Shown piece by piece: positions 311 to 6,836 of a DNA stretch of 64,000 nt. The translations under genes were made by a program, and so were the position numbers. Each line of letters opens with the position of its first letter. Positions within the stretch are counted from its first letter, which is position 1. The stretch covers positions 693 through 64,692 of the forward strand of contig CANRDI010000010.1 in the NCBI GenBank assembly GCA_947629335.1. Reading direction: 5' to 3'. This DNA is from an uncultured Clostridia bacterium. GTDB lineage: Bacteria > Bacillota > Clostridia > Oscillospirales > Ruminococcaceae. The notes below the pieces were generated by a model. It saw only the letters and a program-made list of their open reading frames with translations, was not told the origin of the DNA and did no database searches.

Positions 311-1056
311 AAAACCACGCGTGAAACGTGTGGTTTGCTCTGGCGCTTCAAGCGTCTGGTACCGGCTTGCGCCTGAAGGCGCATTGAATGGTCTGGCAAC
401 CGCATCTCATTCACAAGCAGCCGCTTAAGCGGCTGCTTTTTTGCCTCTTAGTTCTTGCTACCCGTAAACGGGTCTATATACTCTTTCAACGTTAATTGGT
501 CATTCGCTATGTCCTCTGCCAATTGATTGCGTATATACTCTTCTATCGCTTTTTTATTCTTTCCTACCGTATCTACGTAGTACCAGCGTTATTCGCCGCA
601 GGCGAATAATGCGTGCACACAAAAGTGTCGGTTTCCATACTTGTACTTCAAATTCGCGTGCCTGTCAAATATCATCAACGAACTTTTTCCTTTCAGGTAT
701 CCCATAAAACTTGCTACACTTATGTTCGGCGGTATTTCTACTAACATATGTATATGGTCCGGACACGCTTCTGCTTCTATTATGTTTACTTTCTTCTGCT
801 CACATAACTGCCGCAAAATTTTCCCTATGTCCGCTTTTAGCTGTCCATATATTACTTGCCTACGATATTTTGGTGCAAACACTATATGGTACTTGCAATT
901 CCACTAAGAATGTGATAAACTATGATTGTCAATCATTTGACATCCTCCTTTGTTTCTTAGATGTGGTCGCCAAACCTACACCTATTATATCACAGGAGGA
1001 TCTTTTTTCCTTTTATATAAAGACTTTTATTCCACCGCTTCAAGCGGTGGTTTTTT
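311..1056 (-). mobile_element. IS200/IS605-family element (tnpA only), inactivated
   Basis: Terminal hairpins CCACCGCTTCAAGCGGTGG (1032-1050) and AACCACGCGTGAAACGTGTGGTT (313-335) flank a Y1 transposase reading frame. Confidence 0.85.
448..936 (-). pseudogene. tnpA: IS200 Y1 (HUH) transposase with two in-frame stops
   Basis: Reads MIDNHSLSHS*WNCKYHIVFAPKYRR...DHIHML...GNRHFCVHALFACGE*RWYYVDTVG...AIEEYIRNQ...DPFTGSKN*, with an AGGAGG RBS. Stops fall at codon 11 and inside a 27-bp hairpin insertion. Confidence 0.9.
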
Positions 1057-1133: not shown

Positions 1134-1206
1134 TATATAACAAACGTTGTAATATTTTTTCATAACTGTTCATAGAATTTACAAAAAATTGAAAGGACAA
1201 ACCGTT

Positions 1207-1680
1207 ATGAAAAAATGCAAGATATCCGATCTGCTTATTTTTATTCTTTCGGCAGAGCTTGTGGGCGTTCTGTCAAGTCTGTTTGCAGGAAATATCGGCG
1301 AGGCTTATCAGACGCTTGAAAAACCTCCGCTTTCGCCGCCTGCGATAGTGTTTCCTATAGTATGGACAATTTTATATGCGCTTATGGGAATATCCGCGTG
1401 TATAATATACGGCTCCAACGCCGAGAAAAAGCAGAAAGACAGCGCGCTTCGTACATACCGTATACAACTTCTTGTAAACTTTTTATGGAGTATTGTTTAT
1501 TTCAGATTTCAGGCGCTGTGGACTTCGGTCATTGTAATAACTGCATTGCTTGTGCTGATCGTTGTGATGATAGTGAAGTTTTACAGGATAGATAAAACTG
1601 CCGCGTTTCTTAATATCCCATATCTTGTTTGGGTCTTATTCGCAAGTTATCTGAATGTGGCGACCGCTGTCATCAACTGA
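1207..1680 (+). CDS. tspO: TspO/MBR family tryptophan-rich sensory protein
   Basis: Y..L.KPPLSPP..VFPIVWT.LY.LMG, QL.VNFLWS.VYF and PYLVWVLFASYLN motifs. Start taken at ATG 1207. Confidence 0.9.
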   Translation: MKKCKISDLLIFILSAELVGVLSSLFAGNIGEAYQTLEKPPLSPPAIVFPIVWTILYALMGISACIIYGSNAEKKQKDSALRTYRIQLLVNFLWSIVYFRFQALWTSVIVITALLVLIVVMIVKFYRIDKTAAFLNIPYLVWVLFASYLNVATAVIN

Positions 1681-2251
1681 GCTGAGTAAGCGCAACGGTC
1701 TCATCTGCAAAAGTATCACATTCTTCCATGTCGTGAGTGACAAATATCACGGTCTTTCCTTTGACTTTTGTGCGGACATATTCCAAAACTGTTTCCTTTG
1801 TGTCAGCGTCAAGCCCTTTAAACGGCTCGTCAAGGAATAATATCTCGCTTTCTGCAAGCAGTGCGCGTACAATTGCCGCACGGCGTTTCATTCCCCCCGA
1901 AAGTTCTCGAACGGGTTTTTCGGGGCAATCTTTTAGCCCTACGGCACAAAGTTCTTTTTCAATTTCACTTTTTGTGAACCGTTTTCCCGTTACAAGCCGT
2001 ATATTTGCCGAAACCGTAAGATTTTCGCAAAGCCTGTCCTCCTGAAAAACTGCGCTTATCGGCTTGTCAAAACCGATAAGCGTTCCGCTGTCCGCGGGTA
2101 TAAGTCCCATTAAGACCGACAGGAGAGTTGTCTTTCCACAGCCCGACTGACCGACGAGCGCCGTGATTTTTCCCTCTTTGAAATCATGTGTGAAATTGTT
2201 CAGAACAATTTTATCAGAAAATGACTTACAGATATTTTCCGCTCTCGGCAT
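1673..2251 (-). CDS. ABC transporter ATP-binding protein (nitrate/sulfonate type)
   Basis: Walker A GQSGCGKT, VFQEDRL, LSGGMKRR signature, LDEPF Walker B, VTHD switch. Confidence 0.9.
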   Translation of the reverse strand: MPRAENICKSFSDKIVLNNFTHDFKEGKITALVGQSGCGKTTLLSVLMGLIPADSGTLIGFDKPISAVFQEDRLCENLTVSANIRLVTGKRFTKSEIEKELCAVGLKDCPEKPVRELSGGMKRRAAIVRALLAESEILFLDEPFKGLDADTKETVLEYVRTKVKGKTVIFVTHDMEECDTFADETVALTQLS

Positions 2252-2294: not shown

Positions 2295-3041
2295 TCACAT
2301 TCGCTCTATTTTCTTCTGCAAAATGCCGACAACAAGCAAAAACAACTTTTCGCACAATAAACTGAGCAGTATCACCGCCGCTGTCCAAGCAAACAAGTCG
2401 GCTGTTTCAAGGTAAATTTTGGACATAAACAGCTTTTCGCCTATCGAACCGTCGGGTATTCCTATGACCTCCGCCGCTGCTCCGGATTTCCACGAAAGTC
2501 CTATTGCAAGCGCCGACGCAGAGCGAAAATACGGCATAAGCTGCGATAAGTAAACTCCCGAAAATCTGCGTAATGCGGGAATTTTAAAAACTTTAGCCAT
2601 TTCCTTGAGCTTCGGGTCGAGACTGTCAATTCCCGCCTGCATATTTGAGCAGACAATGGGCGTGCAGATAAGAAACGTCACAAGTACCGACAGATTTTCC
2701 GACCTTATCCAAAACAATGCCAAAATAGTGAAAGAAGCAACGGGAATTGATTTCATAACCGAAATGAGCGGAGAAAAAATAATTCGTATAACGCGAAATT
2801 TTCCCATAAACACCGCTAAGACCGTTCCCGTTACAAGTCCTATAAAAAATCCGAGCATTATCCTGCACGAAGAAAACAGTATGCTCTGCCAGAAATCAGC
2901 AGTTATTATAAGCTCTCCGAGCCTTTTTATTACGTCAAGCGGAGATACAAGAAGTATGCTGCTGTCAATAGCGAGCGCCGCAACTTGCCATACTATCAGC
3001 CAGAACAGTATTCCCGCGCTTATCAATAACGCCTTTTTCAC
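2295..3041 (-). CDS. ABC transporter permease (SsuC/TauC-like)
   Basis: Hydrophobic helices with SIPVASF and SWKSGAAAEV motifs; lies between the binding-protein and ATPase genes. Confidence 0.88.
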   Translation of the reverse strand: MKKALLISAGILFWLIVWQVAALAIDSSILLVSPLDVIKRLGELIITADFWQSILFSSCRIMLGFFIGLVTGTVLAVFMGKFRVIRIIFSPLISVMKSIPVASFTILALFWIRSENLSVLVTFLICTPIVCSNMQAGIDSLDPKLKEMAKVFKIPALRRFSGVYLSQLMPYFRSASALAIGLSWKSGAAAEVIGIPDGSIGEKLFMSKIYLETADLFAWTAAVILLSLLCEKLFLLVVGILQKKIERM

Positions 3042-3122: not shown

Positions 3123-4184
3123 TTATGCTCCGAAATAGAAATCATCGCTCGGCATAGCCCCTCCGACAGATTCGGGGTTCTGGTCAAAGAGAACTTGAAG
3201 ATAACCCGAAAGCTTTTCTTTCATTTCATTTCCTTTAATGCATACGATATGACAATCGGGAATTGCCTTCTGTGCGACCTCGGCGGTGACTATCTTGTAA
3301 TTTCCGACAAGCTGAGCCGCTTCGGAAATATTGTTGTTTACATACTCTACTGAAGCGCTGTATCTCGCAAGAAACTCGTTTACTGCTTCGGGATACTGCT
3401 CGGCAAATTCTTTTCTTACTATAACAACACCCGTAAGAAGCGAGCTTGAAAGACCAAGATCGTCCCATGCGTCGTTGAGGTCAATTGCTACGCGCATATT
3501 TTTATTTTTGGTCGTTGCAGTTGTTACAAACGGCTGGGGAAGCATCGCCACAGCGTCGGGATTTGCTTCGAGCGCCGCTACGCATTCCGCATGTTCGCTC
3601 TTCCATTCGATATTAACGTCGTCGGAAATGTTGTGGCTTTTAAGAATGAAGTCGAGGGCGTATTGCGGCGTAGCGCCTTTTCCTGCCGAATAAACGGTCT
3701 TTCCTCTGAGGTCTTCGATAGAATTTACGGTATTTCCGTTTTCAACGATATACAGAACTCCGAGCGTATTTACCGCCAGTGTCTGTATATTTCCTTTAGT
3801 TTTGGAATAAAGCACCGCCGCAAGATTTGCGGGAACACACGCTATATCGATTTCACCCTTAATGATATTCGGGGTAATTTCGTCAGCCGCGCCTGCAAGA
3901 GAAAACTCATATCCGTAATCGTTCTTTTCGTTGTCGTCCATAAGTTTTACCATTCCCATTCCCGTAGGACCGTTAAGCGCGGTTATCACAACTTTTTCGG
4001 GAGCATTTGAGATAGTGGGAGTGCTGTTGTCAGACGAGCTTTGAGGGGTGCTGCTCGAAACGCTGCCGGAATTTCCGGCCGAAGAATTTTGCTCTGAGCT
4101 GTTGTTTTCCGAGCTGCATGCGGTGAACGCAAATGCGCAGAGCGCCGCCATAAAAATTGAACCTAACCTTTTTTTCATAACCAT
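3123..4184 (-). CDS. ABC substrate-binding lipoprotein (SsuA/THI5-like)
   Basis: Lipobox AFTAC, Ser-rich linker, LNGPTGMG and GEIDIACVPAN motifs. Real start is MVMKK (4184) or MKK (4178) after AAAGGG, not 4391. Confidence 0.85.
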   Translation of the reverse strand: MVMKKRLGSIFMAALCAFAFTACSSENNSSEQNSSAGNSGSVSSSTPQSSSDNSTPTISNAPEKVVITALNGPTGMGMVKLMDDNEKNDYGYEFSLAGAADEITPNIIKGEIDIACVPANLAAVLYSKTKGNIQTLAVNTLGVLYIVENGNTVNSIEDLRGKTVYSAGKGATPQYALDFILKSHNISDDVNIEWKSEHAECVAALEANPDAVAMLPQPFVTTATTKNKNMRVAIDLNDAWDDLGLSSSLLTGVVIVRKEFAEQYPEAVNEFLARYSASVEYVNNNISEAAQLVGNYKIVTAEVAQKAIPDCHIVCIKGNEMKEKLSGYLQVLFDQNPESVGGAMPSDDFYFGA

Positions 4185-4207
4185 TATCCCTTTCTTCTTA
4201 AATTGTC

Positions 4208-4318
4208 CGCATAGTCCGAAATGCTGTATATTGTGCAGAACGCGCATTGCAGAAAATGCTGTGCATTGTGTGGAACACAGAACGCGCATTGTCCGAAATG
4301 CTGGGTATTGCGCGGAAC
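4208..4318. repeat. Three imperfect tandem repeats of 34-42 bp in the TM1266-SBP intergenic region
   Basis: CGCAT(A/T)G..(G/A)AAATGCTG...ATTG.G..GAAC copies start at 4208, 4243 and 4285. Confidence 0.7.
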
Positions 4319-4418
4319 TACGTTTTTGAAGCGAATTATTTGCAGGACAAGATAATTCGCCGCGGTCATGCACAAAATTGCCGCAAGTCAAACTTCGAGC
4401 GTCTATGCGGACGGCTCT

Positions 4419-4667
4419 TTACTTTGAGTAAACTGTTTTTGACGTTACGCCGTTTAATCTTCCGAGTTTTCCCGAAAGCGCCGAAATACAGTCCGCAGGG
4501 GCGTCAATGACTACGCATATTATGTTTAGTCCTCTTTCGCGGTACGGAAGTCCCATACGGCTTTGAATATACTGTCCATATTTGTGCAGAAGGTCGTTTA
4601 CGCTCGGAATGCTTTCACTGTCGCTTATGATCATTGAAATTATAGCCACACGTTTTTCCTGCTCCAT
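4419..4667 (-). CDS. TM1266-family (iron-only hydrogenase system putative regulator, NikR C-terminal-like) protein
   Basis: RVAIISMII...VNDLLH.YG.YI..RMGLPYR.RGLNII.VVIDAP.D.ISALSGKLGRL.GV..K matches this family. Confidence 0.85.
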   Translation of the reverse strand: MEQEKRVAIISMIISDSESIPSVNDLLHKYGQYIQSRMGLPYRERGLNIICVVIDAPADCISALSGKLGRLNGVTSKTVYSK

Positions 4668-4681
4668 ATATGTTTCCTTTC

Positions 4682-4882
4682 AAAAAAACCGCGCCCTTCG
4701 GGAATTTCCATACCCGAAAGGCGCGAATTTACATGATGACAATACTCGTCAATATATTAATTGTCCCATAAAATCGGCTGTCTTTCGGTTCAAAAAAATT
4801 TCGCCGTCAGAGTTACCCAATATCTTAATACCGCAAAGGCTGACATAAACCTCGGAAGGCCTCGGCTCTGAACGCCTTTGCA
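4682..4882 (-). promoter_or_regulatory. ~200-nt 5' leader with intrinsic terminator (unassigned riboswitch/attenuator candidate)
   Basis: Stem GCAAAGGC/GCCTTTGC. Terminator CGCGCCTTTCGGG-loop-CCCGAAGGGCGCG-GTTTTTT sits just before the RBS. CCGAAAG upstream can pair with the terminator 5' arm. Confidence 0.65.
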
Positions 4883-4888
4883 TATTAT

Positions 4889-4917
4889 ATTATACACTTA
4901 TGCATAAAATATGTCAA
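4889..4917 (-). promoter_or_regulatory. Sigma-A promoter of the TM1266-ABC operon
   Basis: TTGACA-17 bp-TATAAT on the minus strand. Confidence 0.8.
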
Positions 4918-5071
4918 GCGGTTTTTTAAATTTATTTTTCAGGAATATTTTTTTGTTCGATGATGTGAGATAAAAGTGCATTCCTATTAAGGAAAATAAG
5001 TGTTGACATTTCAGGAAAATTGTTAATAATAAAATGAAGAAAGGCTGACAAGCTGTGTTTACAGCATAAGC

Positions 5072-5158
5072 TCAATAAACATATTTTTCATAAGAAGTTG
5101 ATTTTATGTTTTGGGGATAAACTCTTTCGGAACGAAAATTAGTGCAAATGCTGTTCAT
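5072..5158 (-). CDS. 28-aa ORF paralogous to the N-terminus of the adjacent 305-aa protein (small protein or gene remnant)
   Basis: MNSICTNFRSERVYPQNIKSTSYEKYVY vs MNGIISNWRTERFYFGKSSAVSYEN, 11/25 identical without gaps. AGGAAG upstream. Confidence 0.45.
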   Translation of the reverse strand: MNSICTNFRSERVYPQNIKSTSYEKYVY

Positions 5159-5355
5159 AAAAACTTCCTTATAAATAAAGCCTGCTTCTTTGGTTTGATT
5201 ACAACATAGCATTTAAAGATTATCAAGTTCATTTGCAAAACGAAACCGCGCCTTTCTTAACAAACAGTTTAATTCACTTCGTCAATGTTTTTATAAGAAA
5301 AGAGCGTATAAAACCTAATGTACATAGTTGATAAGGAAAAAAAACTTTTTATCAC

Positions 5356-6273
5356 TTAGTTTACTCCAAATATGAGTTCCGACAACTCTCGCCTTTCAAT
5401 TTTTGCCATTTCTACGCTTTTGGACTTCATTTTCTTCATTTCTTCAAGCAAATCGTTGTCATTTCTGTCTTTAGATGAATAGCGTTCTTCCAAGATCTTG
5501 AGCAGTTCATCGGCTGCATCATTGCGCTCGTCCTTGCCGAAATCATCGCCCCAATCCGTTCCGAGCAAGTTCAGCCAATACTCCAGATTCTTTTTCCCTT
5601 GCTTTCCGCCCGAATAGAATATCGGCAAAAAACGAGAGGTGTCATAGCCTGACTGCTTTTCCTTTAACTCGGAAAGCAGCGCGTTGACCTTTTCGGGGTC
5701 GTCGGTTTCTTTCTTAAATACCGCGTATCTTAAAAATGTAGCCAGATCGTCCGCCTGGGATCTTACCGTATCATAGTCCATATTCTGCATTTCATCTGAC
5801 AAGATAATGACACGTCCCTTAGGCATCGAGTCGATCACTTTTCCGGTTTCGGGATCAACCAAAATAATATCCGCGTCGATGCTTCCAACCTCGACAGCAC
5901 CCTCTTCACCGCACTCCCTTGCATATCTGTCTATTCTGTTTTGCAGTATGCTTCTGAGCGTTTCACCCTCTGCAAGACCCTTCTCAATGTCCTCCATAAG
6001 CTCCTTAAGATCTCCTGCCACAGGAACCGACATATAATCGGTATTTTTCCATGGTTTCGTTACGGCATAAATATCCTTTACAGCTTCTTCAGGCGAGTGC
6101 TGATAAGTTCTTACATACATATCCGAAAAATCAAAATCGCTTTCATTGTTTTGGGGCAATTTCTCCGATTTTGAAATTAAGGACGAAAAAGCTCCGGCGT
6201 TTTCATAAGAAACAGCGCTGCTTTTTCCAAAATAAAACCTTTCGGTTCGCCAATTTGAAATGATACCATTCAT
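5356..6273 (-). CDS. Hypothetical acidic soluble protein
   Basis: Long ORF; GGAGG RBS supports ATG 6273; no family recognised. Confidence 0.7.
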   Translation of the reverse strand: MNGIISNWRTERFYFGKSSAVSYENAGAFSSLISKSEKLPQNNESDFDFSDMYVRTYQHSPEEAVKDIYAVTKPWKNTDYMSVPVAGDLKELMEDIEKGLAEGETLRSILQNRIDRYARECGEEGAVEVGSIDADIILVDPETGKVIDSMPKGRVIILSDEMQNMDYDTVRSQADDLATFLRYAVFKKETDDPEKVNALLSELKEKQSGYDTSRFLPIFYSGGKQGKKNLEYWLNLLGTDWGDDFGKDERNDAADELLKILEERYSSKDRNDNDLLEEMKKMKSKSVEMAKIERRELSELIFGVN

Positions 6274-6836
6274 GAAAAGCACCTCCAAGAACTGCTTTGG
6301 CTAACTTACAGTATTGCATCACATCTACAGAGTATGATGTAATTTGCCGATACATACGCACAGAATATGCGAACGAATGTGCGAGGCATATAAAATATTT
6401 GCAATTTTATTTTAGCATATTTTTAATTTTTTGTCAACAAGTTTGGAAAAAATGCAATGCACGATCTTCAAATTTATTCCGCGCAAGCGGATAACATATC
6501 TACAAATTATAATCTCGTATATTGTACAAAAGTTTTCATCGCAGCAGAGACGAAACGTCCCTCACAAATGTACGGAACGTAACGAGTTAAAAAATCAGCG
6601 CAGAACCAAATAGCTGACAGTAAAACTCAATATTCTCCTGAACTGTGATTTCACTTGCGCCGTAGTCTAAGATACTGATACCGGAGCTTAGTGTTACTCT
6701 GAAAGGATACCGGTGTGAACACAAGTACCCCGATAAGAAAAAACTCACCTTATCCGTTGGGATTTGGTGAGGTTTAATATTATGTAATAGTAAGCTAATC
6801 AGAATTTATGAGCATATTATAAAAATGAATCGGCTT

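Follow-up and report, generated by a model that had tools for sequence, protein, structure and literature searches.

The window analysed here is a stretch of 64,000 nucleotides from an uncultured Clostridia bacterium. It contains a structured leader RNA in front of a gene of the TM1266 family and the genes of an ABC importer, and the whole element is located on the minus strand of the window (Table 1). Behind the promoter the leader comprises a stem (P1) enclosing hairpin 1, a linker of approximately 20 nt, a hairpin here named P3, a spacer, an intrinsic terminator and a ribosome-binding site, followed by the start codon of the first gene. We infer that transcription starts near 4882.

Table 1. 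Features of the leader and the operon, in window coordinates.
Feature	Position	Strand	Details
Sigma-70-type promoter	4889..4917	-	TTGACA 4917-4912, 17-nt spacer, TATAAT 4894-4889; 12/12 consensus matches
Upstream domain	4833..4881	-	P1 4881-4874/4840-4833 around hairpin 1 (P2)
P3, conserved core hairpin	4782..4810	-	R2 score 54.4 bits
Antiterminator strand CCGAAAGAC	4780..4788	-	P3 3' strand plus 2-nt tail; can pair with 4714-4722
Intrinsic terminator	4682..4725	-	13-bp stem 4725-4713/4702-4690, 10-nt loop, U7 4688-4682; in minimum-energy and centroid folds
Ribosome-binding site GAAAGGA (~4681-4675) and TM1266-like gene	4419..4680	-	ATG 4667, 82 aa
Substrate-binding lipoprotein of ABC importer	3123..4391	-	NMT1/SsuA/phosphonate-binding superfamily
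ABC importer permease (BPD_transp_1)	2295..3041	-	Profile matches
ABC importer ATPase	1673..2251	-	192 aa, without C-terminal regulatory domain

The first gene, which an earlier note made from the sequence alone had already named as TM1266, matches TIGR03959 over its full length (104.6 bits against a cut-off of 60.8, positions 1-76 of 76) and PF21699 with 103.2 bits against 27 (E = 7e-30). The protein is a regulator-like ACT/NikR-C fold without a DNA-binding domain and is related to PDB entry 2NZC (E = 1.9e-14), which holds four chains. The host genome has one copy of it. The start codon of the substrate-binding lipoprotein may lie downstream of 4391. The importer had been described as SsuA-type, which stands at the superfamily level, as the binding protein passes the Pfam profiles NMT1 (27.7 against 20.5) and Phosphonate-bd (27.9 against 27), but not at the level of the aliphatic sulfonate family SsuA, for which TIGR01728 gave 67.7 bits against a cut-off of 163.5. 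Just past the 3' end of the ABC operon there is an IS200/Y1-type transposase ORF (589-882, minus strand), and a TspO/MBR-family gene (1189-1680, plus strand) converges on the ATPase gene with an overlap of 8 nt. A 310-aa ORF upstream of the leader promoter (5356-6288, minus strand) has no Pfam or NCBIfam match.

The features of the leader picked out by eye in the earlier note were largely recovered. The promoter is a perfect one of the sigma-70 type and is kept in relatives of the leader. The leader, approximately 200 nt long, folds more stably than every one of its shuffled versions (200/200, z = -3.6). The 8-bp closing stem is P1, formed by GCAAAGGC and GCCUUUGC, and the strong terminator, an equivalent of which is found in relatives, ends its U-run 15 nt ahead of the ATG. 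Structural conservation, on which the proposal of a regulatory RNA had been made to depend, is evident as well: homologous leaders occur in at least 64 of the 101 genomes of the genus and in other families, and their stems carry compensatory changes. By BLAST, leaders from genomes of the same genus are 72-74% identical over the first 150 nt, and a covariance model of the whole leader (R1) has matches in 39 of the 101 genomes.

The upstream domain is the less constant part of the RNA. In the window, CAGAGCC (4870-4864) pairs with GGUUUAUG (4851-4844) to form P2, the interior of which (4863-4852) holds GA/GA mismatches, two GG-CC pairs and a CCUU loop. Among the aligned R1 matches the P1/hairpin-1 domain is variable, and in several relatives it is missing or a mere stem-loop. 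P1 is represented by many pair types across relatives in an alignment that is itself model-fitted, and P2 covaries, the second position of the CAGAG pairing being A-U, G-C or C-G. An alternative TCAGAG/CTCTGA pairing had also been suggested. The complementarity is present in the window, but it is not conserved and is gone in the leaders of hydE-hydG operons. A UCAGAG/CUCUGA pairing or pseudoknot was rejected, as hairpin 1 of the hydE leaders begins with CUGA and CAGAG pairs locally with covariation; the complementarity in the window reflects simply two conserved motif halves, CAGA and CUGA. Leader-peptide attenuation was likewise rejected. An AUG-initiated frame of approximately 43 codons starts at 4883 without a ribosome-binding site, and in relatives it is absent or stops early.

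No known RNA class was recognised in the leader. None of the 4227 models of Rfam 15, among them lysine, TPP, FMN, cobalamin, SAM-I, purine, glycine, T-box, Moco, NiCo, ykkC, NMT1/xanthine and the PyrR site, matched it at the gathering score, and at E<=10 the region 4400-5400 gave chance-level snoRNA, CRISPR and sRNA matches only (14-22 bits against thresholds of 39-70). The failure of the earlier note to fit the leader by eye to ten of these classes (lysine through NiCo) is thereby borne out. A search of 20 related loci returned no relevant family either, while the same scan found the genuine lysine riboswitch of the window (RF00168, 13615-13788, minus strand) at full length with 94.6 bits. 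That the leader is a divergent member of a known riboswitch class (lysine, TPP, SAM, cobalamin, Moco, NiCo, guanidine, T-box etc.) overlooked by cmscan is therefore hardly credible: it shares with these classes the general layout of a leader plus a terminator and nothing more, and its consensus architecture is unlike any of them. Literature searches covering TM1266, riboswitches together with HydE/HydG, and maturase-free hydrogenases yielded nothing relevant. The RNA family is uncatalogued, being absent from Rfam 15 and unmentioned in searchable papers.

The P3 hairpin and the terminator switch

In the window P3 reads CU-GA-CGGC-GA-AA[UUUUU]UU-GA-ACCG-AA-AG, and its consensus is CU-GA-CGGY-GA-AA[loop]UU-GA-RCCG-AA-AG with near-invariant loops. 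The hairpin is a two-fold symmetric duplex, with UGA-N4-GAAA on both strands and a 4-bp helix between two UGA/GAA purine-purine internal loops. An alignment of 30 distinct P3 sequences (A6), in which leaders of hydE-hydG operons and of other families are included, shows pairing in 98.7% of cells and compensatory changes on both sides in four of the eight pairs (24 cells). The helix occurs as CGGC/GCCG, CGCU/GGCG, CACG/CGUG and CACA/UGUG, and the covariation score was reached by no shuffle. There are one to three hairpins of the P3 type per leader; in one genome (G494) a lone P3 stands directly after the promoter. Scanning for UGA/GAA hairpin units with regular expressions produced an excess of false positives in AT-rich coding DNA. 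A covariance model of P3 alone (R2) has a single strong match in the host genome, which is P3 itself. The runner-up has an E value of 0.99, so that this search revealed no second strong match that would indicate a wider P3 regulon in the host.

The 3' strand of P3 has a second possible pairing partner in the terminator, namely its 5' arm. The earlier note had pointed to a CCGAAAG segment complementary to this arm; the segment lies at 4788-4782 and its partner is CUUUCGG at 4720-4714. The contiguous pairs of CCGAAAGAC number seven here and nine in many relatives, in which the terminator arm carries GUCUUUCGG in place of CUUUCGG. Across 39 distinct leaders, the longest contiguous complement of the P3 strand has a mean length of 7.4 nt, compared to 4.9 nt in shuffled sequences, and the complement in the terminator arm sits 13-33 nt ahead of the U-run. 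The pairing also covaries among relatives: AAAGAC/GUCUUU is replaced by AAAGGC/GCCUUU, and CCG/CGG by GUG/CAC in the hydE leaders. Since the 3' strand of P3 is complementary to the terminator 5' arm and both covary, P3 and the antiterminator are mutually exclusive, and stabilising P3 should therefore switch the operon off. With P3 closed the terminator would form and the operon of TM1266 and the ABC importer would be off; with P3 open the antiterminator would form and transcription would read through. Attenuation by terminator and antiterminator is a classical type of mechanism.

The hairpin also occurs with a second kind of expression platform. At two Lentisphaerae loci the 3' strand of the equivalent hairpin (GAAAGGAG) serves as the Shine-Dalgarno sequence for TM1266, which is the same OFF logic at the level of translation, and sequestration of the ribosome-binding site is found at L037, L038 and L126. 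In addition, a second P3 is located between hydE and hydG at L126 (1501-1535, genome G566) and in genome G066 (C106:52378-52412), its 3' strand running into the ribosome-binding site of hydG. This internal copy suggests translational control gene by gene.

Genes behind the leader in the genus and beyond

Searches with R2 gave 66 matches in 64 of the 101 genomes of the genus, and by comparison of coordinates all checkable matches are directly upstream of TM1266, of the binding-protein gene of the importer or of hydE/hydG. The order P3, TM1266, binding protein is found in about 40 genomes, and in about 19 others, each a species, P3 is followed directly by the binding-protein gene and TM1266 is elsewhere. 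Several HydG-positive genomes (G052, G055, G065 and G069) have the promoter, a two-hairpin leader and the terminator directly before hydE-hydG with no TM1266 between, and G065 and G055 have two leaders each.

Matches at the level of the order show the same neighbours, as 11 of the 14 outside the host genome adjoin TM1266, hydE or hydG. Outside the genus, the motif precedes TM1266-hydE-hydG (L036, L098, L108, L127, L128, L132, L138), TM1266-hydG (L135, L136, L037, L038) or hydG without TM1266 in cis (L129, L133, L134). A different arrangement is seen in another genus of the same family, in a genome without HydG (G535; with loci L130 and L144). Here, at L145 (C7:42774-46001), the P3 leader is followed by a free TM1266, a FecCD-type permease, an ABC ATPase and a NifH/frxC-family protein, and the ATPase has a TM1266-like domain fused at its C-terminus (residues 274-347).

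In other families of Clostridia, TM1266 leaders contain two or three related hairpins of the form CCUGA...GAGGG or AAGGG, again without an Rfam family. Such CCUGA-type leaders stand before hydG, hydE, hydF, an AspA-like lyase or an MTA/SAH nucleosidase. TM1266 is followed by a homologue of aspartate-ammonia lyase (AspA-like) at L088, L096, L101 and L106, by HydF at L107 and L110 and by a 5'-methylthioadenosine/SAH nucleosidase at L103, and these neighbours widen the set of genes linked to TM1266 and the leaders. Between TM1266 and the AspA-like gene of L106 there is also a match to the TwoAYGGAY RNA (1841-1906, plus strand; 46 bits against a gathering score of 43).

The leader is best explained as a member of a widespread RNA family governing a regulon for the supply of the [FeFe]-hydrogenase cofactor, the H-cluster. 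Nothing in the context of the RNA is more informative than this link to [FeFe]-hydrogenase maturation, which was absent from the earlier note; there, the ligand was expected to reveal the substrate of the transporter. The expectation gains ground here: because the same RNA controls hydE-hydG in relatives, the sensed signal should bear on the substrate of the importer. New are the comparisons made across the genus, in which one and the same leader stands on either hydE-hydG or the importer, TM1266 in its single copy changes place between these loci, the leader is kept in two genomes without detectable TM1266 and the antiterminator covaries along with P3.

What may hold P3 closed

The candidates for the factor that closes P3 are a protein, a small molecule or some other trans-acting factor. 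As background, PyrR of the Bacillus pyr operon (RF00515) acts by attenuation at leader hairpins, and TRAP is responsible for trp attenuation in Bacillus subtilis. By analogy to PyrR with UMP or TRAP with tryptophan, a ligand-loaded dimer or tetramer of TM1266 would hold P3 closed. The ligand would be a product or an intermediate of H-cluster supply, and one signal would then repress hydE/hydG or, in the host genome, the importer once the supply is sufficient. We regard attenuation by TM1266 and its ligand through P3, with a purely putative RNA binding of TM1266, as quite possible if not quite probable. P3 is two-fold symmetric and present in one to three hairpins per leader, and the extra hairpin between hydE and hydG recalls the several binding loops of PyrR. 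The gene next to the leader is usually TM1266. Of the 64 genomes of the genus that bear the motif, 62 contain the protein, as do 59 of the 61 HydG-positive members of the order sample and all 11 genomes there with the motif. TM1266 is a regulator-like domain related to 2NZC without a DNA-binding part, and its fusion to the C-terminal end of an ABC ATPase whose operon is under P3 control (G535) fits a role as a ligand sensor. Two features expected for protein-mediated attenuation are found. A regulator is encoded within the operon or close to it and shares the distribution of the RNA site (TM1266 in 96/101 genomes of the genus and in 11/11 motif-bearing genomes of the order sample), and there are multiple or symmetric sites fitting an oligomer (the symmetry of P3, one to three hairpins, the internal hydG copy and the four chains of 2NZC).

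Several observations fit less well with TM1266 as the RNA-binding partner. An intact leader is found without TM1266 detectable by HMM and protein searches in G052 (92% complete) and G094 (90%). In about 19 species the leader is directly on the binding-protein gene with TM1266 elsewhere, and the hydE-hydG leaders of G052, G055, G065 and G069 have no TM1266 in cis. In some species of the genus, G009 among them, TM1266 conversely stands alone and is leaderless: in G009 this monocistronic gene (L118, C87) has its own promoter and no leader motif and lies just upstream of rpsO and pnp. The adjacency of TM1266 and rpsO is also seen in G095 but not in G081, G059 and G089, and synteny with rpsO is not conserved. 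The ATPase fusion, furthermore, means that a protein can be the target of the domain, so that contact with RNA is not required of the free form. The median pI of TM1266 proteins is 8.1, which is not markedly basic and says little about RNA binding.

Some of these observations would be accommodated by a true riboswitch. In this reading a small molecule or a metal complex linked to H-cluster supply would bind to P3, alone or together with the upstream hairpin, and the stabilised P3 would lead to termination; TM1266 would be a separate sensor or carrier for that compound and would work on the transporter or the maturases. We consider this conceivable, leaning to the doubtful side. Like a riboswitch, the leader contains a structured 5' element supported by covariation, and the mutually exclusive pairings overlap the presumed sensor in both the terminator and the Shine-Dalgarno variants. 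The internal loops are invariant in sequence, covariation is seen in the helices, both expression platforms occur (the terminator here and sequestration of the ribosome-binding site in L037, L038 and L126), and a single P3 right behind the promoter suffices in G494. The leader persists in the two genomes without TM1266 and controls operons without TM1266 in cis, and the fusion in G535 gives TM1266 a role free of RNA. On the other hand, the universal element of approximately 30 nt is dyad-symmetric, variably repeated and of low complexity, which is more typical of the site of an oligomeric protein; TM1266 co-occurs nearly everywhere, and both genomes lacking it are incomplete metagenome-assembled genomes. 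Protein-mediated attenuation of the PyrR or TRAP kind is at least as likely as a true riboswitch. Of the new or divergent ligand-sensing RNA proposed in the earlier note, a new, conserved and structured attenuator leader without an Rfam match is what stands, and the ligand-sensing part is subject to this alternative.

Another RNA-binding protein or a small RNA could also act on P3, or the hairpin could be a mere processing or stability element that owes its association with hyd genes to shared leader ancestry. The tandem G-A loops do resemble generic motifs of protein recognition. However, TM1266 is the one gene that follows the motif so closely, and in 101 genomes the motif occurs in this regulon alone. 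The competition of P3 with the terminator arm, in which both covary, also speaks for a switch and against a passive element. We regard these options as quite improbable.

Comparison to known systems brings out the likenesses on which a protein such as TM1266 can be considered. As in the PyrR system, the operon begins with a small regulator gene, stabilisation of a conserved leader hairpin sequesters the antiterminator strand and frees the downstream terminator, and extra hairpin copies lie between operon genes. The RNA here, however, differs in sequence and fold (cmscan gave no RF00515 match), and TM1266 is an ACT/NikR-C-like domain of 82 aa instead of a PRTase fold, with RNA binding putative. 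With TRAP the proposed system would share a ligand-loaded oligomer of a small protein acting on repeated short RNA motifs in favour of the terminator, and a regulator gene away from the target operon, as mtrB is and as TM1266 is in about 19 species. TRAP binds 11 single-stranded GAG/UAG triplets, whereas the motif here is a structured, dyad-symmetric duplex with purine-purine loops, and no relationship between the proteins is evident.

A likeness also exists to small-hairpin riboswitches. Guanidine-II/mini-ykkC and the tandem NAD+-I/nadA RNAs show that very small repeated RNA can truly sense a ligand, and they too are short conserved tandem hairpins before a terminator or a ribosome-binding site. 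They differ from the present leader in that there is no match of sequence or structure, the conserved nucleotides here are in internal and not in terminal loops, and the gene context here is H-cluster maturation plus importers. Finally, the TM1266-like domain of G535 occupies the position at the ATPase C-terminus that is held in MetNI and ModBC by the C2/NIL domain of MetN and the regulatory domain of ModC, which recalls trans-inhibition; in the window, TM1266 is instead encoded as a separate protein and such a domain is missing from the ATPase of 192 aa.

Hydrogenases without maturases and the importer

The host, a gut bacterium with a genome rated 100% complete, has four HydA-type genes (PF02906). 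At least two of them keep the cysteine motifs of the H-cluster, which in one read TSCSP, MPCTAK and EIMACPGGCVNG. The best scores for the maturases in this genome all fell below the cut-offs, with 146 against 254.6 for HydE (TIGR03956), 87.5 against 325.55 for HydF (TIGR03918) and 183.8 against 312.15 for HydG (TIGR03955). Among the 101 genomes of the genus, HydA-type proteins are found in 98 (52/52 of high quality), HydG in 18, the binding protein of the importer in 94 and TM1266 in 96, always in single copy; the genomes of the genus, as those of the order sample, are related to one another, and all such counts are therefore descriptive and not statistical tests. The sample of the order (151 genomes) contains TM1266 in 79 genomes and HydG in 61, with 20 of the 79 lacking HydG and 2 of the 61 lacking TM1266. 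One genus of this kind (g305 of family f168, given as an example) has TM1266 in 5/5 and HydG in 0/5 genomes. Several TM1266 matches of the order sample lie in open frames of 330-520 aa (G543, G625, G589, G615) and may be fusions.

A strict either/or of importer and maturases was rejected, as 13 of the 18 HydG-positive genomes of the genus also carry the importer. The binding protein is missing from seven genomes, of which five are HydG-positive and the other two are 82% and 87% complete, and a weaker pattern thus holds: five of the seven importer-less genomes have HydG. It might be speculated that the gut community supplies a ready-made [2Fe]-subcluster precursor, or some other product of HydE/HydG, which the importer scavenges, that HydA could mature without HydE/F/G, and that the leader, alone or with TM1266, senses the organometallic compound. 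We consider this unlikely, if in line with the presence of the same RNA on hydE-hydG in relatives, with the genus counts for HydA, HydG and the importer and the HydG of the importer-less genomes, and with an importer of the FecCD (metal-chelate) type in another genus, which lies behind the same RNA and includes a fused TM1266 domain.

To our knowledge, the regulation of H-cluster assembly in [FeFe]-hydrogenases is essentially unknown, and we know of TM1266 only as a "putative regulator" whose structure has been solved but to which no function is assigned. An RNA switch before operons of hydE, hydG, hydF and TM1266 offers a concrete and testable regulatory mechanism, and TM1266 gains from it either an RNA target or a shared ligand. 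The same switch stands on an importer while most species of the genus have H-cluster-binding hydrogenases without maturases, which raises the question of how those enzymes are matured. The operon is a candidate route for the uptake of the cofactor or a precursor, and such a route, if true, would bear on hydrogen metabolism in the gut and the rumen and on the engineering of maturase-free hydrogenase expression.
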